In this document: piece after piece, positions 1,861-64,000 of the stretch | How positions within the stretch are numbered: position 1 is the first letter of the stretch | Layout: every line of letters starts with the position of its first letter | Assembly: GCA_008690995.1 (NCBI GenBank) | Contig: VRMN01000002.1 | Location: 310,001-374,000, forward strand | DNA: 64,000 bases | Reading direction: 5' to 3' | Source of the DNA: Porphyridium purpureum | Taxonomy: Eukaryota | Translations under genes and position numbers: made by a program | The notes under the pieces: generated by a model | What the model saw: the letters and a program-made list of their open reading frames with translations, nothing else | What the model was told of the DNA's origin: nothing | Databases searched by the model: none

Positions 1861-4203
1861 TTATCGCTTGCGTAATTTTCTATCAGAGTTGCCAGTTGGC
1901 GCGCGAGCTTTCTTCGCTTTCCGCTGAAGACTAAAGTCATGCTCACGCTGCGCCAGCTCCTCCTTTCGAGCTTCTTCACGCTGGCGCTTTCCGCGCTCAA
2001 TCTTCTTTAGCTTCTTGTCCGATACATTCGCGCCATTCTTGCTTCCACCCCCAACACTTGACTTTCCGTCACTGCTTTTGCCCGAGGCTGATGCGGGAGC
2101 GCCGCGAGTCAGCGCGTGCTGTTTGGTTAAACTGCGCACCTCGTCCTTTTGTTTCTTGGTCTGGAACCACGTGCGCGCGGGTCGGGATGCAATTTCTTCT
2201 TGATGGACCATCAGGTTGCTAGCCTTGGCGACTTCCATTTCGGCCAGGCGCAACTGCTTTTCATCACGTTCTTCTCTCAGGACTTCGGCCAGCTGCGCAC
2301 CGGCCGCGTCGATCCTTTCGCGCCACTTGTTGGTAACGCTCACCGGCACCGTGCGCTGCGTGAGCTTCTCCAGCGCTCGCTTGTGAATGTCATTCAGCAG
2401 TTTGCGCTCCGAATCCATAATGAGACTCACCGCTCGCCCGCCGCGACCCGCACGGGCCGTTCGGCCAACGCGATGCACGTACTCCTTCACCGTTCTGGGC
2501 ATGTCGTAGTTGATCACAGTTTCGATGCCCACAATATCCAGGCCACGCGCCGCGAGATCTGTACAAAGCAGAAAATCGACATTGCCGTCGCGAAAATTTT
2601 CCAACGACTCGAGCCGCTGCACTTGCGCCAGATTTCCGTGCAGCTCACCTGCCTTGAGTCCAAACAGGCCGAACAAAATTTTGAAGCGGTGCGCCTTGTG
2701 CTTCTGGGCAAAGAAAATGATTGTTTTGGTCCTGAAACTGCGGGAAACAAGAGCCAGCAGAATGGCATCGCGATTCTGCTCATTCTTGCCTCGGATGCGC
2801 ACAAACTCCTGATCTAGCGAGCTGGCCACGTCCATGATTGGGTCCGCAGCGATGCGAATTGGATTATCTAGCGACATGTTCACCAGCCACTCCACCTGTC
2901 CCGTCAGCGTGGCACTGAACAACAAAGTCTGACGCTTCTTTGGGAGGAATCGCAACAGCTCGTCCATCTCGTCCTTGAATCCCATTTCCAGCATTCGGTC
3001 GGCCTCGTCAATCACCAAGACTTCCACGTCTTCCAATGAAAAGCCCTGCGTATTGCGCAAGTGGTCGATGAGCCGACCGGGCGTCGCAACAACAATATCG
3101 GGCTTGCTGCGAAGCTGAACCTCTTGCTCCTTCGACGACAGTCCGCCTACGGTCAGTGCTGCGCGAAGCGCAGTGAATTTGAGCAGGCTCGAGACCACTG
3201 CATGACACTGAATGGCCAGCTCACGACTGGGCAAGAGCATAATCACACGAGTCGCGAGCATGTTTGCCCTAGCACCTTTGGATGCTTGATTCAGTTGAAT
3301 TAGTCGCTCGATGATCGGCAACGCAAATGCGCCGGTCTTTCCTGACCCTGTGACCGCGCTTCCGCACACATCGCGCCCTTCAAGGGCAATGGGAAGCGTT
3401 TTGAGCTGAATGGGGGTCGGCACGTGCCAACCCATCAGCTCGATGGCCTTCAGCAAAGGTTTTGACATCTTCAAATCTGCAAAGGACCGACGCTTCTGCA
3501 TTTGCTTCTTTGCTTCGGCAAGAAGATGCTCCGGGCGTTTATATCGCTCTCGAAATGCATCGTGCGGCTCAGTGTCCTGCTCCGCATCAGATTGGGCGCC
3601 ACTTCCTTCTGTTTGGGCTGTGGTCACGTGGTCAGCGCGCGAGAGCCCTGTGTTTTGCTTGTGTTTGAGGGGCGCTTCATCCGCTTCTCCAGCGTCGTCG
3701 CTATCGCTCTGTGATTCAGATTCTGAGCGGTCCGAGCCACTTTCCGAGTCGTCCTCACTCTCACCACCACTGCTGGTTGTATCCTCTTCGCTATCTGTCG
3801 GTGCGTGCGCCGGGTCCTCGTCTTCAGATGCTGGTCTCTTCCGCCTTTTAGCCGCGGCGTCTGACCCATTCAGCGCCCTCTGAATCTTCTCATCGACGGT
3901 GCTCTGCTTCGCGGACACCGGCAATGCCCACTGCTTCGCTTGTGTCAGATCCCACGCCTTGAGCAGGACCGGGTCGTCTGCTTCCGCAAACGCCAACTCA
4001 TCCGGCGCCTGCGATCCGTCACTCCCTGCGTCAGAACGACTACTCACACTGTGGTCCGACTCATTGCCACCCGCGCCCAGCTCGGGCAGCACCACAAACC
4101 CATCGACTTCTTTGTAAGTCATTGCCGCTGCCGCTGCCGCCGTCGCCAATACCGTCGCGTGTGCCGCTTCCGCTGATGCTCTAGCTACTGCTGCAGTCGC
4201 CAT
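1861..4203 (-). CDS. DDX27: DEAD-box RNA helicase DDX27/DRS1 (60S biogenesis)
   Basis: Motifs PTPIQ, AVTGSGKT, PSRELA, TPGRLIDH, DEAD, SAT, ARGLD and HRVGRTARAG; DRS1-type C-terminal RPARTWFQ; acidic N-terminus. The first ATG is at 4203 (the ORF track starts at a GTG at 4227). Confidence 0.9.
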   Translation of the reverse strand: MATAAVARASAEAAHATVLATAAAAAAMTYKEVDGFVVLPELGAGGNESDHSVSSRSDAGSDGSQAPDELAFAEADDPVLLKAWDLTQAKQWALPVSAKQSTVDEKIQRALNGSDAAAKRRKRPASEDEDPAHAPTDSEEDTTSSGGESEDDSESGSDRSESESQSDSDDAGEADEAPLKHKQNTGLSRADHVTTAQTEGSGAQSDAEQDTEPHDAFRERYKRPEHLLAEAKKQMQKRRSFADLKMSKPLLKAIELMGWHVPTPIQLKTLPIALEGRDVCGSAVTGSGKTGAFALPIIERLIQLNQASKGARANMLATRVIMLLPSRELAIQCHAVVSSLLKFTALRAALTVGGLSSKEQEVQLRSKPDIVVATPGRLIDHLRNTQGFSLEDVEVLVIDEADRMLEMGFKDEMDELLRFLPKKRQTLLFSATLTGQVEWLVNMSLDNPIRIAADPIMDVASSLDQEFVRIRGKNEQNRDAILLALVSRSFRTKTIIFFAQKHKAHRFKILFGLFGLKAGELHGNLAQVQRLESLENFRDGNVDFLLCTDLAARGLDIVGIETVINYDMPRTVKEYVHRVGRTARAGRGGRAVSLIMDSERKLLNDIHKRALEKLTQRTVPVSVTNKWRERIDAAGAQLAEVLREERDEKQLRLAEMEVAKASNLMVHQEEIASRPARTWFQTKKQKDEVRSLTKQHALTRGAPASASGKSSDGKSSVGGGSKNGANVSDKKLKKIERGKRQREEARKEELAQREHDFSLQRKAKKARAPTGNSDRKLRKR

Positions 4204-4257
4204 TCGCTCTTCGTCCTGCCTCTGCACACGCCGCCACGTCCCCCGCGCACGACGTCA

Positions 4258-4571
4258 CGTGGGAACGATGAGGTCCCGCTGAACCGCGGACTCCCGTGTT
4301 CACTTGGCCGGCGGTGCGGCATAAGTACGTTCTGTGGAGCGGCCGGGTCCCGGCCGGATAACTAGCGAAGGTAAGAGACTCTTTAGCGTGGTGAGGTAAA
4401 GGTTCGTCGTTTATTCGGAGCGATAGGGAGCCGGCGCAGAATCGTCTGCGCGCCTCGAAGAGTCCGCCATATTAGTGGCCCACGTGTTGCACGTTTCGCC
4501 GTGCGCACCCGCACCCCTTTCGGGCGTAGCATCGATCTTTCTCGGCCGATCCCTTGGAGCACCTCTCCAAG
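4258..4571 (+). repeat. 5' LTR (314 bp, CG...AG termini)
   Basis: Direct repeat of 9507-9820; left boundary set by the TSD CGTCA, right boundary by the PBS. Confidence 0.93.
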
Positions 4572-4586
4572 GGTTATGAGCCCAGC
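4572..4586 (+). promoter_or_regulatory. Primer-binding site for a half initiator-Met tRNA (Hemivirus/Ty5/copia type)
   Basis: GGTTATGAGCCCAGC directly abuts the LTR. It is complementary to the tRNAiMet anticodon arm (GCUGGGCUCAUAACC), as in yeast Ty5 and Drosophila copia. Confidence 0.85.
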
Positions 4587-4868
4587 GGCGGAAGCCGTCT
4601 GCGCGGATATTGATCACATGCTTAACTTCGTGTTCGCTTGATCGGTCGTGGGTTTATTTGGTTTGTATCATCTTTGCTTCGGGGAGTTGGCTCGTGTGGA
4701 ACGTCGGGTGTCAACTTCGGACGCGGTCGTTGTGTCTCGCTTGACATCGACCCCAACCGCGATACGGAGCTCGTGAGTGATAGAATCAAGAAGCGAAACA
4801 GTCCATCGCCGGGACCATCACGAGATCGTCGCGCCAGGAGGCGGACCTCGTGATCACGACTGTCGGTC

Positions 4869-7800
4869 ATGGACGACCGTGAGCAGGAGCAGTCACGTCT
4901 GCGCGCAATTATGGCAGCGAGACAGCAATCGTTGGAAGCACAACCTCTGCAGCAGGGTGGAGGTACGCAAGGCAATGCACAGGCTGGTCCATCGCCGACC
5001 GAGTTTGACATGTTGATGGCCAGGGTGAGAGCGGAATTATCCGCCGACTTACGCATGGCACAGCAGCGCATTGAGGGTCTGGAGAGCGATTTGGCGCACG
5101 AAAGAGCAGCGCGATCGGCTTTGGCGTCCGCGGGCGCGGGGCAGGTGGTTCATCAGCGGGGAAAGTTGCTTGAACCTGCACGTATGCCGGCGTATGACGG
5201 GAAAAGAGACCTAGTAAAGATCCTGACGTGGATTTCGGCGGCTCGCGACCGAGTGGTTGAGCCGTACAAGGACGAAGTCGCGGCGGTTGGCGAATCTTGG
5301 GACGACGCAGCCGAAAAGAGGGTCGTTCGAAACCTCGCTGGGTTCCTGACGGATGACGCGCAGTTGTGGTGGATTCGCCTGAGGGAGCAGCCGTTCACGG
5401 TTGAAGCATTTCTAGCCGCGCTCGAGATGCGGTTCGCCCCGGTGAACCCAGGCGCTCGGGCTAGAGATGAGCTGTTCGCGTTGGAGCAGAATGGCACGAG
5501 CGTGGAAGAGTATACAAATACTTTCTCCTCGCTCTGTCTGCGCATTGAAGACGCCACAGAGTCTGAATTGTTCGACAAGTACAAGCGAGGGCTTGACAAG
5601 GACATTAGGGTGCAAACCGAACTTAAGGGCACATCCAGCTTGGAAGAAGTTATCCGCGTAGCTTCGGAGATCGATGCCATCATGCACCCGGAACGCGCCC
5701 GGACTGCCAAGAAAGGGCAGACGCCCTACGGGGACGGACCGGCTCCCATGGAGCTGGGCTCCGCTGAGCGCGGCGGGAAAAGCGTAGGTGCTGGCAGCGG
5801 CGGTAAAAGAAAGAGTGGTCGAAAGAAGTGGAAGGCTCGGGACAGCGGGAGGAGAGATGGTCTGAAAAAGGATCAATGCGCCAACTGCAAACGCATAGGG
5901 CATTGGAAAAAGGATTGCCCGGAGCTCGCCGCACAGGCGGCTGAGCTGGAACTACTCACTGCGAGCACCAGACCAAAAGTCGAGAGGCTTGTGAAGAGAA
6001 AAATGTGGGTGAATGGTCACCAAGTCGACGCAGTGTTTGATACAGGCGCGACGAACACATATGCTTCGCTCGCTTTCTGTGAGAAAATTGGTGTGGCGGT
6101 GGACCGGCGCGCTGCCGTGGGAGGAGTTCGCTTGGCGGATGGTACCATGTGCAGGCCCGAAGGGACCGCGCGCCTGACGTTGAGAATGCATGGGGCTCGG
6201 GATGCAAAGTTGTCCGCGGTGGTACACAGAGCGCGTCACGAGCTCATAGTGGGCCTGGACTGGCTGAGGGCGCAGAAGGCGCATTTGTCCGTGGGAGGCA
6301 TGGAACTACTCAGCACGGATGCGGAGAAAATCAATGAGAAGCCCAATGAGCCAATTAGAGCCACAGAGCCGGTGAGGGTTCTAGACCACGACCTTTTGCA
6401 TATGCCTGCGAAGGAAGATTGTGGGATTTGTGCCCTGGGCAAAATACAGAGAGTGCGCGCGGTGCGTCGCAAAGAGAGTGACTCCAATGCAATCATCGGC
6501 TTTAATGAGGCCGTCTCCATTGATCTCGTGGACCCCTCCTCGGTTGGTGTGGATGGGACGAGATGGGTTCTGGTACACAAAGACATCGGAACGGGCTGGG
6601 TCTCTGTGACGGGCCTGAGGAATAAACTCGCCGACACGGCCTCGTTCGCGTTTCGAGAGATACAGCGGGGCCGCGGTTGGCCTCGGCTGGTGAAAAGCGA
6701 TGGCGGCGGAGAATTTGGAGGTGTTTTCGAAGACATGCTCCGAGACCACCTGGTTGCCCACGAAAAGGGCATAGCGAGGCGTTCAAACACGCATGCCAGT
6801 CAAGAGAGGCTTCACAGGGACATGAATGCGACGGTGAGGGCGCTTCTGATCCAGTCCGGGTTGCCATCGTCATGGTTCTGCTTCGCGGCTCGGTATTGGG
6901 CGGATGCTCGAAATCTCGTTTGGGCTGGGCGCGGAGGCGGTGCCACCGCGTACGAGAAACGATTCAATACTAAATGGAAATTGGAGCTGCCTGCGTTTGG
7001 CCGGGGCGTCGTAGTTTACGACGAGGCTTCCGACAAGAATGAACCGAAGGGCTCTGTCGCAATCGTGGTCGGTTTTCGGATACCAGAATCAGCAGTCATC
7101 AAACAACGACTGAATTGCCTGGTGATCCCTGTTTCAGATATGAGGCCGGCAGCGGCGCGATGGGTACAAGAATGGAAACTGCTCAAAGAAAAGTATCCCG
7201 TCGTAAGAAAACAGCTCAGGCCCGTTGAAGAAGAATTCGCCCGCCCGCCGGACCCTAAACCAGTTGCTGACGACGAGGGGCAGCAGTACCCTGGAAGCGG
7301 TAGGAATGATAAGAGCGACGAGACCGGCGAGACCTCGGAAACCGAGACGCCGGCCGACCCAAGAGAGAAAAGTAATGAGATTGAAACAGGTTTCAAAGAA
7401 TGCGTACGTGCAAACGGAACAGAAGCGCCTCCGACGGGGCCGCTCGCGACAGTAGACGGTCGATCGCGAAAGGGCTCGTGGAGCAGCGAGCAAATTGCGG
7501 CTATTTCGGGCGGCTTCACACGACTGGGTCCAAAGTGGTCGCAAATTATCAAAGAGAGTAAGGCCGCCTTGGCTGGTAAAACAGCGAAAGACGTGCGCTC
7601 GAAAGCGCAGGCGCTCGGATTGCTCGGCTCACAAGCCCAAGGTCTTGGCGAACACAGGCGCGGGAGGAGCGGGGCCTTGCGGCGCGCGAGGGTGAAGTTC
7701 GTAGAAGTTGCGGAAAAAGGGGTGTCGGCGCGGGCAGAGAAGGTCAGCGTGCCTCTTGCCGGAGCGACGGCCTTAGTTCAAGAGCTGCTGGTAACGCAGG

Positions 7801-9461
7801 TGATCGAATCCAAGAGTGCCATGGCCTCGAGTGCCGGTCGCGATGCTTTTGTCCGCGAGTTGACCGCGTTGAGAAGCGTCGGCGCGCTTCCGCTGGAGAA
7901 AGCGGTCGAGCGCAGAACGGCGACGCGAACGCCGCACGCACAGTTTGTGAAGCTGAAGGCCGTGTTCGGAATCAAAAATGCCGAACTAGGGCCCAGCGCG
8001 TGGAAACACAAGTGCCGACTTGTGTGTCAAGGGTGCGTGGTTAGAGACGCAACCGGAACCCTGGTTGTGAACCCATTTGATTGGGAGAAGCCGCCTGGTT
8101 TAGTAGCCATCAGGGCCGCATTAAGCGCAGCGCTGTTGGAGCACGGAGAACACGCTGACGCTGCGTTCTTCGACGTGGACAACGCATACGTACACGCGCC
8201 CCTCGGGGGTCCTCCGACATTCGTCGAATTAGCCGGTCTTACTCGCTGGTTGAGAGGTTGCATACCGTCCAGTCTGTCGTCAAAGCTCGAAGCCATGGAG
8301 AGGCCCGTCGTCAGGCTGCCCATGGCGCTGTATGGCTTGCCACGCAGCGGAAGCGACTTTGGAGCTCACGCACGGTCAAGACTTGAAGGTCTGGGTTGGA
8401 AAGAATCCGCCTCAGATAAGAACGTATACTGGAGAAAGCGTCTGGGTAAGACGGAATGGACAGTCCTATACGTTGATGATGGGGCGGTTTTCGGTGACAG
8501 TGGGGCAATACGGGAGGCGGTTGCGGAGATGAAAAAGGAGTTCTCCATCACCCGCGCGGTTGAATACATGCGCGAAGCGACAAAAGAAAACCCTGTGCGG
8601 TTCCTGGGCATCGGGTTCTATGTCGACAAAGACATGGACGGTGCCTGGGTGATGAGTTCACGAGAGTATGCACGGCATATGCTAGCAGACGGTCAAGAGA
8701 GGCAGGCGCGAAAGACTCCGATGTCTTGTAAGCCTGAGCCCGACAGAGATGGCGAGGTCTGTGACAAGAGCGTAAGACGCACCTTGGGGCGTATTTTGTG
8801 GCTGGTTCGGACAACCAGGCCAGATCTGGCATTCGCAGTTGGTACGGTAGCGCGCTGCACGGATCGCTGGGGTGAAGAAGCCGAAAAGGGCCTGAACGAC
8901 ATCATGCGGTACCTGCAGGGCAGTGCCGATGCGGTGTTGGTGTTTCGCGTGCCACCTCTTTCGGGTGCCGGCAGGGCCTTGCCTGTGTCTGTATCTTGTT
9001 ATACTGACGCAGACTTCAGCGCAGAGAGGTCGACTAGCGGCGTGTGCACTTTTTTTGTTGGTAAGAATACGAGACACCTTGTGGACTGGTCAAGTGGGCG
9101 GCAACGCCGGACCGCGACCTCAACCGCCGAGGCGGAACTGATCGCTGCACATACAGCAGTGCAGTATCGTGTCTTTCCGCTGGGCGTGTTTATCGAAGAA
9201 TGGCACAATGCATGGCCAAAGGTGGCCATGTATGTCGACAATGAGACCGCGCTAAACGCGATCAACAAGGGATGGAGCGACAAGATGTTGCATCTTCACA
9301 AGATGCAGAAAATCAGCCTGAAATGGCTGAACGAAGTGTCCAAGGACGGCCTGGCAGACTTCGTGCACGTGAACAGCAAAGACAATCTTGCAGACGGTTT
9401 GACGAAGAATCTCGCAGTCGACTCGTTCCAAAAGCAACGCCATGGTTGGTGCGTCGTCTGA
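4869..9461 (+). CDS. Gag-Pol polyprotein: Gag, CCHC knuckle, protease, integrase, Myb-like domain, RT, RNase H
   Basis: Knuckle CANCKRIGHWKKDC; protease FDTGAT; zinc motif HDLLHMPAKEDCGIC; integrase D (SIDL), D (KSDGGGEF), E (SQERLH); RT FDVDNAY, ALYGLPRSG, YVDD; RNase H YTDADF, STAEAE, YVDN, NLADGLTK. Confidence 0.95.
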   Translation: MDDREQEQSRLRAIMAARQQSLEAQPLQQGGGTQGNAQAGPSPTEFDMLMARVRAELSADLRMAQQRIEGLESDLAHERAARSALASAGAGQVVHQRGKLLEPARMPAYDGKRDLVKILTWISAARDRVVEPYKDEVAAVGESWDDAAEKRVVRNLAGFLTDDAQLWWIRLREQPFTVEAFLAALEMRFAPVNPGARARDELFALEQNGTSVEEYTNTFSSLCLRIEDATESELFDKYKRGLDKDIRVQTELKGTSSLEEVIRVASEIDAIMHPERARTAKKGQTPYGDGPAPMELGSAERGGKSVGAGSGGKRKSGRKKWKARDSGRRDGLKKDQCANCKRIGHWKKDCPELAAQAAELELLTASTRPKVERLVKRKMWVNGHQVDAVFDTGATNTYASLAFCEKIGVAVDRRAAVGGVRLADGTMCRPEGTARLTLRMHGARDAKLSAVVHRARHELIVGLDWLRAQKAHLSVGGMELLSTDAEKINEKPNEPIRATEPVRVLDHDLLHMPAKEDCGICALGKIQRVRAVRRKESDSNAIIGFNEAVSIDLVDPSSVGVDGTRWVLVHKDIGTGWVSVTGLRNKLADTASFAFREIQRGRGWPRLVKSDGGGEFGGVFEDMLRDHLVAHEKGIARRSNTHASQERLHRDMNATVRALLIQSGLPSSWFCFAARYWADARNLVWAGRGGGATAYEKRFNTKWKLELPAFGRGVVVYDEASDKNEPKGSVAIVVGFRIPESAVIKQRLNCLVIPVSDMRPAAARWVQEWKLLKEKYPVVRKQLRPVEEEFARPPDPKPVADDEGQQYPGSGRNDKSDETGETSETETPADPREKSNEIETGFKECVRANGTEAPPTGPLATVDGRSRKGSWSSEQIAAISGGFTRLGPKWSQIIKESKAALAGKTAKDVRSKAQALGLLGSQAQGLGEHRRGRSGALRRARVKFVEVAEKGVSARAEKVSVPLAGATALVQELLVTQVIESKSAMASSAGRDAFVRELTALRSVGALPLEKAVERRTATRTPHAQFVKLKAVFGIKNAELGPSAWKHKCRLVCQGCVVRDATGTLVVNPFDWEKPPGLVAIRAALSAALLEHGEHADAAFFDVDNAYVHAPLGGPPTFVELAGLTRWLRGCIPSSLSSKLEAMERPVVRLPMALYGLPRSGSDFGAHARSRLEGLGWKESASDKNVYWRKRLGKTEWTVLYVDDGAVFGDSGAIREAVAEMKKEFSITRAVEYMREATKENPVRFLGIGFYVDKDMDGAWVMSSREYARHMLADGQERQARKTPMSCKPEPDRDGEVCDKSVRRTLGRILWLVRTTRPDLAFAVGTVARCTDRWGEEAEKGLNDIMRYLQGSADAVLVFRVPPLSGAGRALPVSVSCYTDADFSAERSTSGVCTFFVGKNTRHLVDWSSGRQRRTATSTAEAELIAAHTAVQYRVFPLGVFIEEWHNAWPKVAMYVDNETALNAINKGWSDKMLHLHKMQKISLKWLNEVSKDGLADFVHVNSKDNLADGLTKNLAVDSFQKQRHGWCVV

Positions 9462-9506
9462 ACCTCGAGACAGATTGGAGTCCGGCGATTTGCGCGTGAG
9501 GAGGCG

Positions 9507-20382: not shown

Positions 20383-21112
20383 CGTTTTTCCAAACTCCAC
20401 ACGGAGATGACTCTGTTCTCTCTCAGCCTTGGAGGGTCTCTGTCTGGCGCAGCCCGTGCTAGCCACACTCACGCGCGCATTTACACCGCGAGCTGCCGAC
20501 ACGCCCCGCGCACGTTCAGTGTATCTGCAGAAAACGCGCGGCCGCGACGCCACCTTTTTCTGCGTGGATTTGCCAACCGCCAGTGCCATTCCGAATCACA
20601 TGGACGCGCAACCTATCTCTGCACCACGCGCAATCATCCTCATCAGGCTGCGCACACGCATCCATGTGAGCAGCATCGTTTCCACACTCAAGCTGAGCGC
20701 CTTGCGCACTGCGGCGATTCTCAGACACGCCATTTGTAAGGAGCACAAAGTACAGTGAGGCCGATGCGGCTGTACATAAATCGTATGAAACGTGTGTGTT
20801 TTGATAGAAAAGGTCTCTCGAGGAAAACGGAACTTTGGTAAAAGAGCGAGAGAGAGGGGAAATGGGAAAAAGGGATGAGCGCGCGAGTGGGACAGTCGCG
20901 TCTCGGTGTGAGCGAGGGGTGAAAAGGGGGTTGTCGCTGAGCGTGGATGCGGCGGCGCGCTCGAGGTTTGGGCCGGCGGTAGGTTGGAGGGTGACGAGCG
21001 TGCGGGCCGCGTGAGTTGGGGAGCGCGAGAGTGTGCGGGAGCGGACCGGGAACGCTGGGGCGCTGTGGACGGAGAGGGGGGAGGGCGATAGGGATTGCGC
21101 GTCGAGTGCAGC

Positions 21113-22480
21113 ATGCAGCTGCGCGCGTCGCCGTGGGACAAGACGCAGCAAGGGCGAGCAGGCACGGGCGCGGGGAGGGAGGCAGTGGGGTGGGCGGCGG
21201 TGTCTCCGACGGTGCAGGAAGCGGCCAGGCTCGGCGTGGGTACCGGCGAGGTCCTCTCGGCGCCGCAGGAGGTTGTGCACGAGCGGGAAGAGGCGGCGAC
21301 GTTGCCGTCCATGGACGAACAGGATGACCAACCGGTGCCGATGAGGGACGTGGAGACGCCGGCGGCTGCCGCTGCTGAACCAGCCGCTGCTGCGAGTCGA
21401 GGCCTGCGGCTGGACGACGAGCGCAATGACTCGGTCGTGATGGATGTTGATGCGGCATCTGGTCAGCACTCGATGAGCTCGTCCTTGGACGACGCCCAGG
21501 CGCCACGTCGTTCGGTGACCTGGGCGTCCCAGCACGCCGTGCCCCGCAGCGCAAGGGCCCCGGAATCTTCCGCCGCGGATGACTCGGTCGAAAAGCTCGC
21601 CGGAGAGCTGCAGAACCTTTTGGATTACGTGAAATCCAAGCCATCTTTCACACACGCGTCGGCGTCATTCATTCGCGACCATCTCCGCACGTTGTTGGTG
21701 CTCTCAGCTGCCGGGGCGCAGCGGGTATACGAGCAGCAGGAGAAGGAGCGGCTAGAAAGCATGCTGGCCTCCTCGTCACTCGTTCCGGGCTCGCTGGTCC
21801 CGCGGCTCATGCGCTCAAGTTCGTCCAACCAGGGCTGGTTCCAAATGCTGCCGAACGACCTAGCTAGACTCATTTTTTGTTTTCTAGACGGCCCGGACCT
21901 TGCGCACGTGCGGCTGGTGTGCAAGCAGTGGGACGCGTTCGGCAAGGAGGAACATCTATGGCAACGGCTTTGCACGCGCAACTGGCGAGCACTGGACCAC
22001 GACCACAGCCTGTGGAAGCTTTTGGGCTCGAGCGCGCTTCTAGACGACCCGCAGCGCTGGCGCAAGATATACGCAAAAGTGCGCGCGCGCAAGCACTTTC
22101 GGTGTCGCTTGCAGAAGACGGGCCGCTTCATTTGCCACCTGGTTGCGCACCATGTGAAGGGCGGAGAACTGGGCAAGAATGGGCTCCCGGAGACGTTGAT
22201 CGTCGAACGCCGATTTAGTATCTCGCACCTGGAAACGTTTGTGCTGCCGGACGCCTCGGTGCTTTATTTTGAGCCGGAGACCGATGCAGATCGCCCGGGC
22301 TTTGAGGAATTTATCGAGTATCTGCTCAAACGGGAGCGAGCAGGCCTAGCGCTCGATGACGAGCGCAGAATCATCTTTATTCCGCCGTGCGAATTTTCGA
22401 AGCAGATGGGCTACGACGGACCGAACCTGCTCGGCATTGTCCAGTTCCAGTATCCGCCGCTTGCAAATCATCACTCGTAA
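21113..22480 (+). CDS. F-box + SPOC-like domain protein, paralog 1
   Basis: F-box LPNDLARLIFCFLDGPDLAHVRLVCKQW; C-terminal SPOC-like region (FEEFIEYLLKRERAGLA...IFIPP...LLGIV). Start codon uncertain. Confidence 0.82.
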   Translation: MQLRASPWDKTQQGRAGTGAGREAVGWAAVSPTVQEAARLGVGTGEVLSAPQEVVHEREEAATLPSMDEQDDQPVPMRDVETPAAAAAEPAAAASRGLRLDDERNDSVVMDVDAASGQHSMSSSLDDAQAPRRSVTWASQHAVPRSARAPESSAADDSVEKLAGELQNLLDYVKSKPSFTHASASFIRDHLRTLLVLSAAGAQRVYEQQEKERLESMLASSSLVPGSLVPRLMRSSSSNQGWFQMLPNDLARLIFCFLDGPDLAHVRLVCKQWDAFGKEEHLWQRLCTRNWRALDHDHSLWKLLGSSALLDDPQRWRKIYAKVRARKHFRCRLQKTGRFICHLVAHHVKGGELGKNGLPETLIVERRFSISHLETFVLPDASVLYFEPETDADRPGFEEFIEYLLKRERAGLALDDERRIIFIPPCEFSKQMGYDGPNLLGIVQFQYPPLANHHS

Positions 22481-23519: not shown

Positions 23520-23830
23520 GGGTTGTGTGTGTGTGTTTCTGGTGATGAGGATGATTGCGGGTATCAAAGAGAGAGGCGGAGGAGAAGGAGGAGGGAAGTG
23601 TACCCACGGAGGTTCATTGTCTGTAATGGATTGGATTGGATTTTGTGTGTGTGTGTGCAGGGGTGTGTGTGTGTGTGTGTGTGGGTGACAGGGAGAAAGA
23701 GCGAGGGAGAAAGGGAGAGGAAGAGAAGGGAGAGAAGCGAGAGAAGGGAGAGAAGGGAGAGAGAAGAGAAGACGCTGTGGGAAGAGTGGTGGGTTGGAGA
23801 AAGGTAGGGTGGAGAGGGAGGGAGGAGGTG
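23520..23830 (+). repeat. GT/GA low-complexity microsatellite tract upstream of F-box paralog 2
   Basis: (GT)n runs followed by purine-only GA/GGA runs. Confidence 0.75.
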
Positions 23831-23839
23831 GTAGAGTGG

Positions 23840-26371
23840 ATGAACGTGGGCGTGTTTGAGCACGGGCGAGTGGGGCCTGCGGACGAGGGGCGAGGGGAGG
23901 CGCGCGCGAGCAGTAAGGCGGCGTGCTTGCCCGAGATGGACGCGACGCCCGCGGCGTGTGAGGCGCCCGGGGAGAGGAGCGCGTGTGATGGAGAGGGGGG
24001 TGCGAGGGGCCGTGAACCGCGGAGGGCCGCGGGCGACGGGATATGGGTGCCGCGGGACGCGCCGAGCGCGCCGGAGCCGCATGACGACGACGACGATGAG
24101 AACATGCTGCGCGCGCAAGACGTGCAGAGCATACCGCCACGCGAGGAGCACAGCGGGTCCTTGCGTGGCGCTGCAATCGGGATTGGCCGGTTGTTTCATG
24201 CGCAGCAGAGCCAGCCGAGTGACTCCTCGCTGCAAGCCGTCATGCCGTCGTCGCCGAGCACGCGCTGCGCCTCGCCGGGCGAGACGATTTCTCCTCGCCT
24301 ACCGGCAAACCAGCAAACTGCCGGCTCGGCGACGGCGGCGGCGGCAGCGGCGGGTTGTAGCGACGGCAGCGGCCCGGGCACAAGCCTTGCAGGCGGGCTG
24401 GTGGGCACCGGCGATCATTCCTGCACTGTACACCCTGCGGCGCTGCTCCATCAGGACGTGCGTCCGGTCGCAGCGCCGTCAGCGCTCGCTCCTCATGTGG
24501 ACATTATGGCTATCATGTCTCAGGGACACGTCACGGAAACAACACCGGCGCACACGCAGTGTGCCTGCTGCAAGGCGCGAGTCGCTGCGGCGGGGGTCTC
24601 GAGTGCGCGAAAAAACACCTCGAAAGCTGCAGTAGTCACCGCGGATACCGCGACATACGCGGACCCGACGCAGCCAAGCACAGCGAACAATGTAGGATCG
24701 GCGGCTGCTGTGGCACACCCATCGGGGGCCGTTGAGGAGGCCTCGGTCCACGCGAGCCGTGCAGAACACGCAGAGTCTGGCCGGATCTCAGACTCAGAGT
24801 GGAAGCTCATCTCGGCGCTGCGCGACGCGGTGCATGGTGCGATGATGGGTGGCGACGGAAGTCGTCAAGGCGGCATACGGTCTGATACCCCGGCTTCCAG
24901 CGCGGGAGCAGGCGACGTGTCAATAAGAGAAAGGACGCTGATCACGGCGTTACGAGAAACGGTGGACTCCGCTATTGGCGGAAGGCTTTTGTCTGGAGGG
25001 GCTCCCGCGACAGGTTCCGCCACGCCTTCTGGTGCGTGCGCCTCACCATTTAAGTACAAGAACGATACGGAGATGGATGCTCCAGGTGCCGTCGATTCGA
25101 ATGCCGGCTCTCTGAAGCGCAAATCAACACCGACAAGGTACAGCGTGCAGCCAAGTAGCGCGGCGGCTCGGCAATCGAAAATAGAAGGCCCTGCTAGTGC
25201 ACCAGCGGGGGCACCTGCCACCATGACCGCAGGGAGATCCGTGTTTGGGGCGATGGGAAGCAGCGGCGCGGCGACCGTGACCACGACGAGCTCAGAAGCA
25301 GAGGAATCAGACCTTGCCATGCGCTCTGCACCGGCGCTCAAACGCCAGAGACGCGGAGACCCGAATGAAAACCATCAAATCAGCCCCCTAGGAGATGAAA
25401 ACAGTAATATATCGAAAGTGCCGGCATGGCAGCAGGGCGGTTCTGCAGTGGCGTACTTCCCAAGTGCGTTGGATCTGCTCAAAGCAGCATTCGAAGGACT
25501 TGGCGAGGAGCTCGCCATCGATGAGAAGGACGATACCGTATGGCGTCTCATGTCCCAGCTGATCGGCGTGTTGGAGTATGTGTCGGTGAAGCCCACGCTG
25601 ATCGGCGGGCCGGCTTCCTTTTTGCGCGATTATTTACGCACGCTGCTGGTGGGGTCCGCGTCGGAAGGCCAGCGCGAGATTGTGCGGCGGGAGATCGTCA
25701 GTGCCGATTTGTATCCGCAGCGGCGGGCAAATCTCTTCAACGCGCTGCCGCACGAGCTGACCAAGCACATTTTGTCGTTTTTGGATGGGCGAAACATGGC
25801 GCGCGCACGGCAGGTGTGCCAAACGTGGCGCGAGATCGCGTGCGACGAGGAGATATGGAAGCAGTTGTGCATCAAGGAGTGGCGCTCGCTTGCCGCGGAT
25901 CCTGATGCATGGCCACTGGCTAATCCGCTGGTGAGCCACGAGGATCCGAACCGCTGGAGAAAGATCTATCCGAGTCTGGTCACAGGGAAGAGCTGGCGCT
26001 GCCGGCTACAGAAAACAGGCCGCTTCATTTGCCACATGATCGCACACCAGGTGAATGGATCGTCGCTGGGCGAGCGCGGACTTCCTGACACGCTCGTTGT
26101 AGAACGCCGCTTCAATATTCTCCACCTCCAGACCTTCGTACTTCCGGACGCAGCCGTGCTTTATTTTGAGCCGGAATCCGAAGCTGACCGTAGCGGCTTT
26201 GAAGACTTTATCGAGTACCTCACGCGGCGCACGCGCGCGGGGCTTGCGCTCGACGAGCAGCGACGCTTCATCTTCATTCCGCCCTGCGAGTATTCAAAGG
26301 ACACACTCAACTACCGCGGCAAAAGCTTACTAGGCGTGGTGCAGAATGCATTTCCGCCATTGCAGGGCTGA
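23840..26371 (+). CDS. F-box + SPOC-like domain protein, paralog 2, with a long disordered N-terminus
   Basis: F-box LPHELTKHILSFLDGRNMARARQVCQTW; C-terminus highly similar to paralog 1. Start is ATG 23840 or 23936 (uncertain). Confidence 0.82.
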   Translation: MNVGVFEHGRVGPADEGRGEARASSKAACLPEMDATPAACEAPGERSACDGEGGARGREPRRAAGDGIWVPRDAPSAPEPHDDDDDENMLRAQDVQSIPPREEHSGSLRGAAIGIGRLFHAQQSQPSDSSLQAVMPSSPSTRCASPGETISPRLPANQQTAGSATAAAAAAGCSDGSGPGTSLAGGLVGTGDHSCTVHPAALLHQDVRPVAAPSALAPHVDIMAIMSQGHVTETTPAHTQCACCKARVAAAGVSSARKNTSKAAVVTADTATYADPTQPSTANNVGSAAAVAHPSGAVEEASVHASRAEHAESGRISDSEWKLISALRDAVHGAMMGGDGSRQGGIRSDTPASSAGAGDVSIRERTLITALRETVDSAIGGRLLSGGAPATGSATPSGACASPFKYKNDTEMDAPGAVDSNAGSLKRKSTPTRYSVQPSSAAARQSKIEGPASAPAGAPATMTAGRSVFGAMGSSGAATVTTTSSEAEESDLAMRSAPALKRQRRGDPNENHQISPLGDENSNISKVPAWQQGGSAVAYFPSALDLLKAAFEGLGEELAIDEKDDTVWRLMSQLIGVLEYVSVKPTLIGGPASFLRDYLRTLLVGSASEGQREIVRREIVSADLYPQRRANLFNALPHELTKHILSFLDGRNMARARQVCQTWREIACDEEIWKQLCIKEWRSLAADPDAWPLANPLVSHEDPNRWRKIYPSLVTGKSWRCRLQKTGRFICHMIAHQVNGSSLGERGLPDTLVVERRFNILHLQTFVLPDAAVLYFEPESEADRSGFEDFIEYLTRRTRAGLALDEQRRFIFIPPCEYSKDTLNYRGKSLLGVVQNAFPPLQG

Positions 26372-38680: not shown

Positions 38681-38909
38681 GGCTGCCTGTCACGCAAAGC
38701 TCACACCCACATCCACCTTCTCCTCGCCACGCCCCGCGCTTGCGCACGCCCGCCAGAGCCTCCCGCCAACAGAACACAGAGGTACAGTTGTCACCCATCG
38801 CTACCCTACCCTACTGTAAGCAAATCTCCGTTTAAGAAACATGCGGTACAGCAGCAGCTGTACACAAAACTGTGGGTACAGTGAAGTACAGTGAAGTGCA
38901 GTGCAGAGA

Positions 38910-49376: not shown

Positions 49377-52299
49377 CAGAAGCAAGAGTGCCACGGCTTG
49401 AGCAGCGATCTCCGGTCCTTCAGCATTCGATACAATCGGGCTGGTGGCATGCACGGGCTCGCGCTGTATGACGAATTGTCATTCTTTGCATACTTTTTCA
49501 AGTCCCTTCAACTCTGAAGCAGAATTTTGCCCTTCCTTCTTGTCCTTCATGCATTGATGCCGACGCACGGCAGTCCTGTGGTGTTCAGCGCAAGCTTGAC
49601 AGTCTCTGTGAGCGACTTTAAAAATTGTATCATCTTCGTCCCGACGCTCAAGGAGTTACGGCAGACACATAATGCGACTAACTTGGTGCCGTGAGATCAG
49701 TATTGACTTGTTGGGCTCAAGCGGACTCGAAAAGCGCCACATTCTGACGTTGATCCGTTCGAAGCGCATGGTCCAGTCGAAGGCTAGGAGTCGCCATTCA
49801 ATAGTCGAGATGACACCGGACCGAGCGAGCTACTTGGAGTGGTTGACCGTCGGGATGTAAACGAAGAAATACGCGTCGTCGCGCAGATGCCCTGAGCCCC
49901 GTTTTTTCTTCGAGTCCAGGCGTTCTACCAGTCGAAAATGCAATCCGCAAGACGAGAATGTTCGCATTCATGGACGTGTGAACAACCGCAACCGATGCGC
50001 CCCGCGTCAGTGCAGAACCTTTGAATATTGGTTTTCGCCATTCTATGACTGGGACCGACCTGAGCAAGTGTAATGAAGAAAATTTGCTTGTGCGACCATT
50101 CGTGTTTCTATGCACCGGCAAAAGGCCTGGATGCCTCGTATGGTCCACCACTCTCGCGTCATGATGATCTTCTTGCGAAGGGCAAGCGTTCCGAGCAACG
50201 GCTAGACGCCACAAGCAACTTTTCGACCGCCACCAACTCGGAATCTCTGCATAAGGGGCCACGCTCTGGGCCAGCAATCTACTCGTCATCTGAAACCCCT
50301 GCGCACATGAGTCAAGCACCGCGCGCATGCGTCCGACGTCGAATCCGCGTCATCGCGCTGTCGCGTGCTTCACGACGCGCTACATCCGCACCGGCTCGGC
50401 AAAGTCTCGCATGGCTCATGTTCGCGGCGTACAGGCAAACCAGAATTGTACATTTCAACGGCAGAGCCATTTTGTGAGGCAGCTACAAGCTACGCTGCCC
50501 TGTCGACAAGTGGACCAGTATTTCCTGAAGCGGAAATTCCGGTAGCCACGCAAGACAGCCACCATTGTTGATACGGATGAGCCGTTTCAAATGGCAAGCG
50601 TAAACCACAGCAAACGGCGGCTTTCGACCCCTTCTGCAGACGAAAATCAGCCGACCAGTCCGAATACTGCGCATTCAAAGCGATCGACGCCCGCCACTCT
50701 CCATCGCAGTGAAAGATGCGTGACGACGCGTTGTGCGCTCAAGCATGCCGAAATCTCTTGCCCCTTCCTTTCGCCCAACGTGACCTCACGAAACATGATC
50801 TGGACGTGCGATGCCAGACTGCTGTAGCCTTTCCCTAGTGAGAGACGACGACGCTCGACGTGCATGCGCTCCAAGACCTGAATCTTATATCCAAGAGAAA
50901 CCTCAATTTCTCCAACAAATTCATTCGCTTGACTTCAAGCCTGGACGGAACAAAACGAGAGCAGCTGTTCACAATTGTGTCGTTATTTGAGATATTCGCT
51001 GCATACAACAAACACTTTATACTCTCTAGTGTAAAGTTACGCGTCCACTCCCTCAATTCTTAGACGCGCTTTCCATTCACGCCGCCTCCGGCCCGGGCTT
51101 CAAGTCACATTATTACACTAACAGCTGCGCGCTTATCCACACAATATTGCCTTCCTTGGGCACACGAGCGCCTACCGCGTGCAGACAATTACACCGGTAT
51201 CGGCTTTTAGAATATTCCGACACCAAAAGTTTCAAGAAAACGGGAGCCAAGTCTGTCATACGACACAGCTCCTAGGCCTTTGACTTGTTGGCTTCCGTGA
51301 AAAACCCACAGCAGAAGTTCAACCTGCAAAAACAAGCTACTTGCCATTCTGCTTTTATACCCCACTCCCTGGCCTCTCAAAATCGAAGCATGTAGTTGAA
51401 ACCGTCACCGCGACACCAAGTTCCAAGCAGGAGTCGCAACAAGAATTGCAACCGTTTCAATTATCCCTTGCCAGCGCCGGAGTAGCACTCGTAACAGGCC
51501 TGTGGTACTGACGGCCTTTTGGGAACACCTGGCCGGCACACTGTAACGGGCAGCGCGGCTTCGCGGAATAGCGCCGCAGAATGGGAGCATCACTGGAGCG
51601 GACACAAGCTGAGCAGCGGCGGGTATAGAAGCGCGAGCCTTTCGACTAGTTTTCGGAGATGGCCTGGACAATTTAAGAAGCAAGGAGCTTTAAAGATATA
51701 CGAGAGTTGCTTTCAGAAATCTGTCCCCGAGAAGCCCAAATTAGGACTCAGCTACCTTCTGGTCAACTCCTCCAACACCAGAAGAGCGAATTTTGCTCTA
51801 CCAAAAAGAAATGAAGCCGCGCCCGCAGCAGCGGACAGGTGCCCGCGCAGGGTCCCTGGCTTCAACTCATGTGATATTGAAATCCATTTTCAGCTTTATA
51901 AAGGTCTACGCTTGGCATAGTTAAATGTAACTACAGGAGTTAAGGGGATCGGCGGCTCGGCCATCCCGGCAGCGGCGCCTGTGCAAGCACCTGCTGTTTC
52001 CTTGTCACGCGGTTCAGCTCTCGGTGGCTATACCGCCGGATTCTTCAACACTAGGAGTGGCAAACTGCAACCTTTCGCTCTCGAAACCCCCATTCCGAAA
52101 ATCGCTAAGGTTTCCAACGCTGCTCGCGCATGCGAAGGGTCAAGCCCCAAACCCTGAGAAAGACTGCCTTGCTACTACATTAGGCCACAGCAAGGTCGTC
52201 ACCTTGAGAGTGCGAAGGCTAGGAATTGCAGTACCCCACACTTTTAAACGAACTCAACACGAAAAACGAAGTCAAACAAGGGTTGGGTCAAATCACTCC

Positions 52300-55200
52300 T
52301 GCTTTTTATAATCCTTGCTTGACCTCGAACTCAACATGTTTAAGTCATTTTCTGACCTCAGGAAATGTGTCAGTGTCTTGTTGCTTTTCGCTTTGGTGAA
52401 AGCGTCTGCCAGATTATCTTCACCCTGATCCAACAGTTTCTGCCTCTGGAATGCTTCTCGGACGACTGCTAGATCCAATGCCAGCCGCTTCTCTGAGGTG
52501 ACTCGGCTTGTGGTCACCGAATCAAAGATGCATTTGCTATCTGTGAATGAGTGCAGCTCCACTTATTGTTTGAGGCTGTGCAATAGAGCCTTGGCATATA
52601 AGCTTGCGCCCAAAGCGTCGCTTAGGGCTGGCACGTTGGCACCTAAAACACTTCCCATAATTCTGCGAGTCTTTTTGATGTCCACATGAAAGACGCGCCA
52701 TTCCCATCTTCTTCGTACAACATTACGCAGCAGCCAACTTGCGAAGGCAAGTCTTCGCTGTTCCCGAAGGCGGCATCCGAGTATTTTCTGAGTGCCACCG
52801 CTGAGCCCAATTTCGGGACCATGAGCTCAGCGTCAGCACTTAGAGGGCTTCGCGCCATCGATATCAAGTGATTAGTCTTGTTATTGTCAACTGTTTGTTC
52901 CGTAATCTGCATCAATTGTCCCGTCATGTACGTTGTTTGTGGGCTGGTAAGGGCACCAAACCACGCCCACGTGCCTATGATTGTTTGCAATTCTACATAG
53001 TTATCCACGATCACATTTTGGTTGAGTAGCGTCTTGAAGAACGCCTGCTGGTCCAGCTACAGAAATCCTTGCACAAGCCGCATTGTTTGTCCCGCGAACT
53101 GCAGAGGAGGACCTTCGTCCACCAAACAGTGTCTCTCTTTCACGTCAAACCTTTTCTCAAAGGTTTCTAAATATCGCTCAATTGATCTCCGCCGCCGGCA
53201 AAAATGTTATCGACATAAATTCCGAGTAATTCATCCTTACCAATCGTGAAGGCGCATGCATCCACTGCTTGTTCTAGGTTTCGGTCTTTCAAATCATTGA
53301 GTACCGTTTTAGACCAGTGCGTGGGGGCATCAACCAATCCGTTCAAAGGTTTCACCAATTTCCAGTATTTCATTTCACCGTTTGGGTTGTACTTAGCAGG
53401 CGACATGACGAATTTAGCTCTGCTCAAGCTGTCGCTTCGTAAAAGCACTTGCTTAACGTCCTATGAGCGCAATTGTAGACGACGGTTTCGAGCCAATGCA
53501 AGTATCGCTTTCAAGGTTTAAAAGTGCAGCGTGGGTGGTTCCGGAATTTGCTCTTCTGTGTTGCGATCTACACGGCCCAGAATGGTAAGTCTTGCTTCCG
53601 GTGGTCCGTCAGGCTTGATTGTGAAGACCCACTCAGTCCGTAGTAGGTTCGCATTTGGTGGCACATTTACCACGTCTTCAAAACCATTTCTTTTGTTTAA
53701 ATCTTGAAATTTAGCTTCGCTTCGTCAAACATCGTGCCAGATTCACCCTCAAGGCAGTATAAGTCTGGCGTAGCCAGGCCGGACGTCCCCTCACGAAATG
53801 GTCTGATAACGGCAATTGATACTGTTATCTGACTGCAGCTTTTGTTTCCTCGTAAAAGAGCTAGATTCTGATCATAATCTTTGCTGACCAGCGTCATAGG
53901 ACCTTCCCAGAGTTTCCTCTTTGAGCGATAAACCTTGACTGAATTACCTGCTTTCATTGCAATGTCCATTGGGTACCTTCCGCTAAGGGCACGGTGCAGT
54001 CTTTCCTTTGCTACAAGACCTTCATACATGTAACGATCCACCCCTTTGTCCACCTGCAGCTTTTTTCTAATCGCCTCTTTAATCTTTTTGTTACAGTCTA
54101 AAGTCTATTCTAATGGGCACTGTACCACTCGGTACAGTGCATCGGCCCCCAAAATAACTGGGCGGTCCGGTTAGCTTTAGGGTCTAGTTGTAGGGTATTT
54201 AAGCTCTGCCGCTTCACGGCGGGGATTGGAGAAGGAGAGAGAGAGAGAGAAGAGGAGAGAGAGTAAAAGACGTTGGTTTTGAACGCTTGGGGTCTGGGAC
54301 ACGAGCGGACGATTGGCGTAACCCCCCAAATCGTGGCATACCCTTTCCTGGTTGCCCGCGCCGCGTGCTTTCTCGTGCGCAAATCCAACGATGCCATCAT
54401 ATCATTGCCTAGAATAATACGTGGTGTTACTCCAAAGACAAGTAGAGTTGGTATAAAGCGACTTGGGTTCATCGTGCCGTTTAAGACTTTAACACACAGG
54501 TCAAGGAGCAGACTTTCCGATAATGTATTGCTATCTGGTTCAGCTGTTAAACGATTATGTACGCGTCTGAGAAGTCCATGCACTTGCTCCCCAGTCCTAA
54601 TTGCCAAAGGGCCTCCACGCTAATGGGCACTACACTTATGCCATGTGATTGGGCTGTTGAGGTGAACCCCATAACTATGAATTCCGAACCTTGGTCTACC
54701 CGAAGCTCACGAGATAACCCGCTCGTCGTACAAAACCACGTCGAGACAAAAGCGTCCCACACTGATTTGTTTGATTTGTCCTTCGAAAAGGTTGCTCGTC
54801 GGTATCCGGTGTCTACACACACAGATTGCAGAACCGGTTTGTTGTTAAGGTAGAAGACATTCATCGGAACCGTATGATGAAACGATATTTTATCTGGACA
54901 GTGTGATCTATCACTTGAGCGCAGGGGCTTACCTGCTTCTTCTTCGCAAACTTTGCATCCCTTGCGAGCTTGGCGCAATTCCTTGGCCAGGGCTCGCTGG
55001 TCTTTGTTGCTCATGGGCTCAGCTCTCTGCAGCATTGTCAGTCGACGAGGCGCTGGCAAATGATCAAGCCTGCGGTGTACTCTCTCTACTTCAGTCTGTG
55101 TATAGAATGGTTCAACTTCACAGCTAGCTTCCAAATGTGCTCCATTCGTCTCAAAAGGTAGCACAGACCCGTACTGAAACCGCACGCTAGAGTTTTCCAA

Positions 55201-58727: not shown

Positions 58728-59021
58728 TGTTACCAATGCTGTGCCTTTTACTCTCTCTTCTTCTTCCCTCTTCTGTCTCCGAGCAAGACCTGACCGGCTA
58801 GTCCGGGCAGGCGCGTCGCCTTTTTATACCCTTACTTCCGCTAGGGACAGCAAGGCGCCAAGAGAAATGACAATGCAAACCATTGGCATTTCTGCGCGCG
58901 TCTAGAAGTTTGTGGAACGTCTAGAAGCTTCTAGAAACGGTTAAACGGTCTAACGGTTTAACGGCTTACCGGTTTTGGATTAACCGAACCGTTCTAGGTG
59001 ACTGGGGTCGAACGGATAACA
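58728..59021 (-). repeat. Gypsy 3' LTR (294 bp)
   Basis: TGTTA...TAACA termini; sense-strand GGGTATAAAAAG TATA box; adjacent polypurine tract AAGAGGGGGGGAGA. Confidence 0.93.
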
Positions 59022-59140
59022 TCTCCCCCCCTCTTGGCTCGACGTCTCGGCGAGACTCCAAACTAAGTTGCATTCTTGGCTCGAGGAACCCGCGCTCCGG
59101 GAGAAAACCTCTGCCTAGCAAACTTCTCACAATTCCCAAG

Positions 59141-63890: not shown

Positions 63891-64000
63891 TGTTACCAAT
63901 GCTGTGCCTTTTACTCTCTCTTCTTCTTCCCTCTTCTGTCTCCGAGCAAGACCTGACCGGCTAGTCCGGGCAGGCGCGTCGCCTTTTTATACCCTTACTT
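63891..64000 (-). repeat. Gypsy 5' LTR (partial)
   Basis: Identical to 58728-58837. Confidence 0.93.

Follow-up and report, generated by a model that had tools for sequence, protein, structure and literature searches.

Here, we describe a chimeric long terminal repeat (LTR) retrotransposon in a 64,000-nucleotide stretch of the genome of Porphyridium purpureum, a unicellular red alga (assembly GCA_008690995.1, contig VRMN01000002.1, positions 310,001 to 374,000 of the forward strand), which is called the window and whose own numbering is used throughout. The 64-kb window is gene-dense eukaryotic DNA nearly without introns, and the element, termed the hybrid element below, spans 4258-9820. It combines a Gypsy-type capsid and protease (PR) with a Copia-type primer-binding site (PBS), integrase (IN), reverse transcriptase (RT), and RNase H (RH), and it is highly probable that the Gag-PR block of an ancient Copia element was replaced from a Gypsy element. 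A module exchange between Metaviridae and Pseudoviridae had been proposed from the letters of the window (the sequence-only reading), and it was supported here by profile comparisons and separate domain trees. The features of the hybrid element, and of a Gypsy element used for comparison, are as follows (aa, amino acids):

4253-4257, no strand: left copy of the target-site duplication, CGTCA (sequence comparison)
4258-4571, plus strand: 5' LTR of 314 bp, with ends CGTG...CAAG rather than TG...CA
4572-4583, plus strand: primer-binding site GGTTATGAGCCC, adjoining the 5' LTR
4869-9461, plus strand: one Gag-PR-IN-RT-RH frame of 1530 aa (list of open reading frames (ORFs), Pfam)
5172-5762, plus strand: Gypsy-type capsid domain, aa 102-298 (Pfam, BLASTP, fold, profiles)
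5874-5924, plus strand: CCHC zinc knuckle, aa 336-352 (Pfam)
5976-6287, plus strand: Gypsy-type aspartic protease, aa 370-473, DTGAT ... IVGLDW (Pfam, tree, profiles)
6288-6377, plus strand: linker between Gypsy-type and Copia-type sequence, presumed crossover region (alignment; bridged by contigs)
6378-7079, plus strand: Copia-type integrase, aa 504-737 (alignment, profiles, tree)
6387-6431, plus strand: compact integrase zinc finger, H-x3-H-x6-C-x2-C, common to the sister elements
7470-7616, plus strand: Myb-like three-helix domain in the integrase tail, about aa 868-916
7800-8861, plus strand: Copia-type reverse transcriptase, YVDD at aa 1201 (Pfam, profiles, tree)
8979-9455, plus strand: Copia-type RNase H (alignment, profiles)
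9498-9506, plus strand: putative polypurine tract, a purine-rich tract adjoining the 3' LTR (sequence)
9507-9820, plus strand: 3' LTR, the same as the 5' LTR throughout
9821-9825, no strand: right copy of the target-site duplication
9827-9833, plus strand: host word ACTGTAC, with its first base 7 out from the LTR end
58728-64000, minus strand: ordinary Gypsy comparison element, outside the hybrid element (ORFs, repeats, Pfam)
62517-63344, minus strand: Gag of the comparison element
59266-62736, minus strand: pol of the comparison element (PR-RT-RH-IN)

The LTRs of the hybrid element match at 314 of 314 bp, the 5-bp target-site duplication CGTCA flanks it, and its frame is open over 1530 aa, in accordance with the intact ORF and identical LTRs noticed earlier. 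In the N-terminal third of the polyprotein, Pfam identified Retrotrans_gag, Ty3_capsid, zf-CCHC, and gag-asp_proteas, and neither a Copia Gag nor a Copia protease family was found in the scan of the whole polyprotein. The downstream match to RVT_2 was weak (E=0.001, below the cut-off), and the integrase was missed by Pfam; the latter aligns with its relatives from the compact finger through the catalytic core. IN precedes RT in the frame, and this Copia order of pol and the Copia identity of RT and RNase H, both claimed by the sequence-only reading, were borne out by alignments, the RT and RNase H profiles, and the RT tree. The GC content and the GC content at third codon positions differ little between the modules (Gag-PR, 0.59/0.64; IN, 0.56/0.60; RT, 0.57/0.63), thus giving no compositional sign of a recent fusion.

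The search for relatives with the RT-RH region returned 33 proteins. Those of P. purpureum included P0006, P0007, and P0008 (43-47% identity in the RT region) and P0011 (36%), all with Gypsy-type Gag and protease, as well as P0013 (34%) with a Gypsy-type protease. P0201, with 30% identity over RT-RH and the same build, represents a third hybrid branch (branch C, besides branches A and B). Four metagenome proteins, referred to as sisters (P0010, P0012, P0014, and P0015; 30-35% identity), have the same compact finger and a protease that ends, at the equivalent place, in the Copia-type motif (L/V)S(L/M)G. Because families at 30-47% RT-region identity have the same build, the exchange is ancient, and the identical LTRs date this insertion rather than the exchange. 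Therefore, the recency that had been claimed for the hybrid applies to this insertion, which is young, and not to the exchange itself. The search for other copies with the same build, which had been suggested as a check, yielded near-identical copies in addition to the divergent families. Scanning for related loci, twice in metagenomes and once in viral sequences, confirmed none.

The BLASTP alignment of the hybrid Gag with the Gag of the window's Gypsy element had 79 of 268 identical residues (29%; E=1e-28 for the pair) and contained all six motif pairs from which homology had been read by eye. At this identity, the window's own Gypsy element is a relative of the donor and not the donor. The two proteases were 22% identical (E=0.007), with the pairs DTGAT/DSGAT, VRLADG/VTLADG, and IVGLDWL/ILGMEWL aligned, so the earlier assignment of the protease to the Gypsy type was upheld, though the pairwise match is weak. 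The C-terminal motif IVGLDW is of the ILG type and not of the LLS type of Copia; in a passage of PMC2774666, the motif is described as telling Copia proteases apart from the rest "with a very few exceptions". Capsid and protease profiles built from the hybrids were compared, at a cut-off of 8 bits, with rows called Copia or Gypsy by Pfam, as were the rows of all trees in this study. They scored 13 of 13 displayed Gypsy-type rows, each for whichever of the domains it contains, and 0 of 22 Copia-type rows, of which four are the sisters and 18 are other Copia rows, and the RT and RNase H profiles had the reverse pattern, scoring Copia-type and not Gypsy-type rows. In hhalign, the hybrid Gag reached 99.95% against twelve Gypsy Gags versus 0.16% against four Copia Gags, and the profile-profile comparison of the hybrid protease gave 99.85% with Gypsy versus 37% with Copia proteases.

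In the PR tree (37 rows), the hybrids and Gypsy rows were split from the sisters and Copia rows at 95/99, and constraining the hybrid and sister proteases together was rejected by the approximately unbiased (AU) test (p-AU 0.013; 36 rows, quick tree). Separate trees had been advised earlier for each domain, and in them neither Gag nor PR groups with the Copia rows. A Gag-PR profile made from five hybrid blocks was also searched against 1.84 billion proteins. Among the best 150 matches, 20 continue to a Gypsy RT and 6 to a Copia IN or RT, and the other 124, mostly Gag alone, have neither RT type nor a Copia IN, except that P0035 among them shows a Copia IN by eye. Of the six Copia-continuing matches, the five that were looked up (all except P0042) belong to P. 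purpureum by their clusters, and the best true Gypsy match among these 150 was the P. purpureum element P0044. The word-based Gag-PR search found nothing beyond the query and one plant protein, and, among PDB sequences, the matches to Gag-PR were limited to zinc knuckles and, weakly, Ddi1. The Foldseek list shown for the Gag-PR model held proteases only. The best fold match of the capsid model was dArc1 (Z 10.3, root-mean-square deviation 6.7, 136 aligned residues), followed by PNMA2 (Z 7.2), and the Copia capsid reached Z 6.3 and 6.0. This fold result agrees with a Gypsy origin of the predicted capsid and is not decisive alone.

Several points weigh against the replacement proposed here. A Ty1 capsid fragment also reached Z 7.2, and the capsid model was middling, with a predicted local distance difference test score (pLDDT) of 66. 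Bootstrap support in the PR tree was unsettled, the long Copia row P0030 fell with Gypsy, and P0030 was omitted from the AU test of the protease. The trees were built from Pfam-assigned rows and held no named GyDB or REXdb references. Moreover, the Gag of the sisters matches neither Copia nor Gypsy profiles, so that only their protease shows the ancestral state.

The downstream modules group with Copia. In the RT tree (40 rows, without P0005, P0022, and P0032), the Copia side was supported at 100/100 apart from ten Gypsy rows, and the hybrids lay within it in a clade with the four sisters (99/97). The IN tree (35 rows; P0003, P0004, and P0009, tagged there as hybrids, lack the N-terminus) was split at 100/99 from eight Gypsy rows with the hybrids on the Copia side, and the hybrids and sisters formed a starred clade (97/92). 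P0015, an element with a Copia protease, branches below the hybrids in the RT, IN, and joint IN+RT trees. This position, with the hybrids nested in Copia, makes it very unlikely that LTR elements had a Gypsy-like Gag and protease from the start and that this lineage simply kept them while other Copia elements diverged. Such retention would be in line with the deep, long branch of the lineage among Copia and with the protease fold, an old type whose nearest matches are host Ddi1 and the proteases of retroviruses. However, the hybrid Gag is too near to Gypsy Gags of the same host, with the identity given above and shared indel-level motifs, for a split at the root, and P0044 outranks the Gypsy polyproteins of other sources among the best 150 Gag-PR matches.

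The junction of the two parts was found to be real. The PR-IN junction, at about 6290-6380, lies within single contigs in 7 of 7 contig runs (4/4 and 3/3; the runs X1 and X7 among them derive from one sample), for example in contigs covering 5854-8731 (X1), 4560-8963 (X2), 4258-7953 (X5), and 4560-8951 (X6), and the misassembly that had been raised as an objection is not what these contigs show. The stretch was present wholly or partly in 20 of the 24 listed sequencing runs from seven studies, and three proteins named P. purpureum were 99.1-99.9% identical to the hybrid polyprotein. It is hardly credible that a Gypsy 5' half and a Copia 3' half were joined in a single recent event or only by the assembly. 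Although both types occur in the window and the support comes from contigs, not long reads, the frame is open, the LTRs are identical, the target site is duplicated, near-identical copies stand on other scaffolds, and divergent families have the same build. Thus, the hybrid element is intact and multi-copy in Porphyridium, and it has moved recently, since its LTRs are identical and its near-identical copies have many differing flanks.

The depth of contigs over the element relative to the flank ranged from about 1.4-fold (X6) to about 25-fold (X3), which is not a copy number; the spread hints at a copy number varying among samples. Joints of the 3' end to the 5' LTR in X5 and X10 were left unused, as they may be one-LTR circles or graph collapse. 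Additionally, the gene model of protein P0185 consists of a near-identical copy of the polyprotein and about 790 further residues, probably a neighbouring host gene. In one RNA run, of which about a fifth was read, 50 reads fell over 4150-6750, mostly on one strand within the ORF; the hybrid element is barely transcribed in that one sample, and the same run had 0 reads across the junction, a point against the replacement proposed here.

The number of exchanges is a further question, and it is only slightly less than an even chance that, as a variant of the replacement proposed here, exchange was repeated, with two or three captures of a Gypsy gag-protease (branches A, B, and C) or with one capture and a swap back in the sisters. 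Without P0201, branches A and B formed one clade in the RT (96/88) and IN (93/85) trees, which argues for a single capture. With P0201, the joint IN+RT tree (22 rows, using 8 of the 18 other Copia rows) instead nested three sisters inside the hybrids (89/97, unstarred), placing the sisters next to branch A, within B and C, and thus interleaving C, B, sisters, and A. In the capsid+protease trees, branch A held together (100/99 and 100/100), and branch B joined P. purpureum Gypsy rows apart from A at 95/92 (in the other tree, one row at 88/77). These interleavings tell against one capture; however, a single hybrid clade was not rejected in the joint IN+RT tree (p-AU 0.25), nor were A and B as one clade for capsid+protease (p-AU 0.11), the branches of B and C are long, and resolution is poor in the capsid+protease trees. 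Therefore, one capture or up to three would both be compatible with the trees.

Some row labels bear on the reading of these trees. P0038 and P0036, entered as hybrids in the PR tree, the capsid+protease trees, and a further quick tree, show no pol, and that further tree tagged P0047 and P0060 as Gypsy Gags, of which P0060 is a cluster mate of the hybrid P0201 and P0047 owes its tag to its Gag; the proven P. purpureum Gypsy rows are the window's element and P0044 only. The branches also differ in gene layout. Branch A has Gag-pol in one frame, whereas in branch B (P0208, P0046, and P0062 versus P0011 and P0215) a separate Gag seems to end in a stop with pol in another frame, a probable frameshift whose stop the gene models bridge with false introns; this difference would fit separate captures. 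In addition, a Cys/His-rich cluster was seen in the integrase tail of P0004, P0006, P0009, P0010, P0012, P0014, and P0201. P0006 has this cluster together with a Myb-like segment, and the window's element has the Myb-like segment only.

The PBS provides an indication of which block was replaced. The reverse complement of GGTTATGAGCCC is GGGCTCATAACC, which contains a CAT loop and probably corresponds to the anticodon arm of the initiator tRNA (half-tRNA type), as judged against a general consensus. Since this primer site upstream and everything downstream of PR are Copia-type, Gag-PR would be the replaced block, and a joint movement of capsid and protease makes sense because a protease has to process the Gag that it comes with. 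A passage of PMC13017519 describes half-tRNA priming for Ty5, and the part of a plant survey concerned with priming records it in Copia lineages only (PMC6317226).

The ends of the LTRs are unusual for both families. Both LTRs have CG...AG ends rather than the TG...CA of Copia, with the usual TG and CA lying two bases inside, and the loose ends of other insertions fall exactly at 4258/9507 and 4571/9820. The complementary DNA (cDNA) was seemingly joined without trimming of its ends. Among non-canonical LTR ends in 50 plant genomes, the first base was always T, as stated in the relevant part of 10.1101/137141. Taken together, we suggest that a single polyprotein is made, that the Gypsy-type capsid would build the particle, and that the Gypsy-type protease would release the Copia enzymes from the polyprotein. 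RT would then be primed by the half initiator tRNA at the PBS, and the cDNA would be inserted with its two outer bases untrimmed, giving the CG...AG ends and the 5-bp duplication, at a position 6 bp from ACTGTAC. The swap itself would most likely have occurred by template switching between co-packaged or nested RNAs. Priming, copying, and insertion would be Copia-like and particle formation Gypsy-like, and the hybrid element lacks defining features of each family.

The insertions share a target word. We read 14 flanks outward from the LTR end, namely the two of the window and 12 distinct loose-end rows, 4 of which are a consensus of several contigs or reads; three repeats, two rows of the element interior, and seven rows not at the LTR end were dropped, and two further loose-end rows were not displayed. 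In 5 of the 14 flanks, the word ACTGTAC begins at +7, with the 5-bp duplication and a single base in between. Two more flanks, and a merged row probably including a flank already counted, have it there with one mismatch; AGTAC stands at +7 in two of the 14, and four have nothing at that place. With a background of 11 occurrences per strand in 64 kb, 5 of 14 corresponds to p of about 1e-10 after correction for all 7-mers over 30 offsets, and without the window's own 3' flank, 4 of 13 corresponds to about 3e-7; a background of non-coding DNA only would be about three times higher, leaving the conclusion unchanged. The flanks are unalike apart from this word. Since a single side of each insertion is enough, about half of the flanks would be expected to have the word even if targeting were near-universal.

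ACTGTAC is also distributed unevenly in the window. Within 1-50000, 14 of 18 occurrences lie outside the 20 listed ORFs, which cover 74% (one of the 14, at 287, lies inside an unlisted ORF). ACTGTAC or its complement GTACAGT was noted at 9827, 9846, 16415, 20750, 23022, 23059, 29352, 29424, 36441, 36452, and 38782-38886. Being often paired, non-coding, and upstream of genes, the word is a candidate promoter word of the alga. The insertion separates a DEAD-box RNA helicase gene of essential appearance (1861-4203, minus strand) from the words now at 9827 and 9846, and it lies upstream of the start codon of this gene at a distance of about 55 bp.

A domain that could read this word was found in the integrase tail. 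Pfam gave a Myb match at aa 868-914, phmmer matched the integrase tail to c-Myb (E 5e-4) and also to Tbf1 and Trf1, and the model of the tail had three helices with a core pLDDT of 81-91 and listed Foldseek neighbours that were nearly all Myb/SANT domains. The Trp residues are invariant across seven aligned rows (the hybrid and six relatives). Nevertheless, other results count against a Myb assignment: the Pfam match was sub-threshold (E 0.036 here and 9e-5 in P0011), the best Foldseek E for a Myb-like domain was 0.26 with none at E 0.001, and no Myb-like match was found in the relatives P0004, P0009, P0013, and P0201. On these data, the chances that the Myb-like tail reads ACTGTAC appear about even. 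A competing possibility, a substantial one that falls somewhat short of even, is that the integrase is tethered by a host promoter factor sitting on ACTGTAC, with the Myb-like tail otherwise employed. The enrichment of the word outside reading frames, the several words upstream of genes, and the position of this copy near the helicase start would suit a host tether, but the element's own domain is conserved in the six aligned relatives, and its best matches are the sequence-specific Myb, Tbf1, and TRF domains. We therefore offer the fuller picture only tentatively, as it is rather doubtful when taken whole: an undescribed lineage of genus level, whose particle module was swapped across Metaviridae and Pseudoviridae, perhaps repeatedly, and which captured a Myb domain reading a 7-bp promoter-region word and leaves untrimmed non-CA ends at a fixed 6 bp, would have a self-targeting Copia integrase.

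The window harbored other mobile sequences and genes. In the comparison Gypsy element, the gag and pol frames overlap, the LTR ends in CA, and the PBS is of the tRNA-3'-end type; it seems to have entered the end of a Tc1/mariner-like transposase frame (57673-58533), which is interrupted by stops immediately beyond. A decayed remnant of a Copia-like LTR element (54547-56399, minus strand) contains protease-like and integrase-like pieces with a weak rve match, and no similarity between it and the hybrid element was found. Around it, a 73-bp direct repeat (50897-50969 and 57301-57373; 78% alike, 6.4 kb apart) possibly represents its LTR remnants. Two adjacent F-box-like genes (21092-22480 and 23627-26371) have a similar C-terminal domain (73% over 155 nt), and a kinase (11453-14329) has an N-terminal helical region and C-terminal 111-bp repeats, Sel1-like by eye.

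The classification of LTR elements is based on RT and domain order and presumes that Gag and PR move together with these, and a large plant survey discarded elements with chimeric signs as likely mispredictions, as one of its passages states (PMC6317226). This successful lineage shows that the particle module (the capsid and its protease) and the replication module (primer site, RT, and IN) are exchangeable between the two families, and such elements could serve as natural material on the matching required between modules in RNA packaging, cleavage sites, and tRNA priming. With the Myb-like tail and the constant distance to a 7-bp word, sequence-directed integration of an LTR element becomes directly testable in an alga that is small and can be cultured. 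Furthermore, the CG...AG ends break the pattern of a first base T, so that standard finders would miss such elements.

It is unlikely that the hybrid element belongs to a mixed clade already described (GalEa, Gmr1-like, or PyRE1G1) or is filed as a Copia entry in Repbase or GyDB. A red-algal Copia element with a Gypsy-like integrase is in print, and PyRE1G1 of Porphyra yezoensis is reportedly that element (Peddigari 2008); going by the title of that paper, the foreign module is the integrase there and Gag-PR here, and the integrase of the hybrid element groups with Copia. GalEa-like elements are also reported from Porphyridium cruentum in a passage of PMC3587641, but GalEa is described with a PBS complementary to the 3' end of tRNA-Met and a long H-to-C finger spacing, unlike GGTTATGAGCCC and H-x3-H-x6-C-x2-C in the hybrid element. 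Gmr1-like Gypsy elements, defined in PMC3587641 by a Gypsy RT and an IN moved upstream, share the Gypsy-type front end and IN before RT and differ by their Gypsy RT and IN, those of the hybrid element being Copia-type. In our literature search, no Copia element with a Gypsy Gag and protease was described, with Repbase, GyDB, Dfam, and supplements outside its scope. CoDi-A diatom Copia elements have an integrase with an added putative targeting domain, a chromodomain and not Myb-like, and the passages on CoDi-A mention no Gypsy Gag-PR. Recombination among Copia lineages, noted in the survey cited above (PMC6317226), is a precedent.

Like the Copia elements Ty5, Osser, and Bryco, which are primed by a half tRNA-Met, the hybrid element has Gag-PR-IN-RT-RH in one frame, an RVT_2-type RT, a Copia-type IN and RNase H, a PBS abutting the LTR, and a 5-bp duplication. 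Unlike Ty1/Copia, it has a Gypsy-type capsid, an ILG protease, the compact finger, the Myb-like tail, and CG...AG ends. With the P. purpureum Gypsy elements, which are Tf2/chromovirus-like (the window's and P0044), it shares the capsid, zinc knuckle, and protease type, whereas those have the order PR-RT-RH-IN, an RVT_1 RT, a tRNA-3'-end PBS, and TG...CA ends. The four sisters have the IN and RT nearest to those of the hybrid element and the same compact finger, and three of them share the Cys/His cluster of the IN tail with some hybrids; they differ from it in their Copia-type protease and unrelated Gag.

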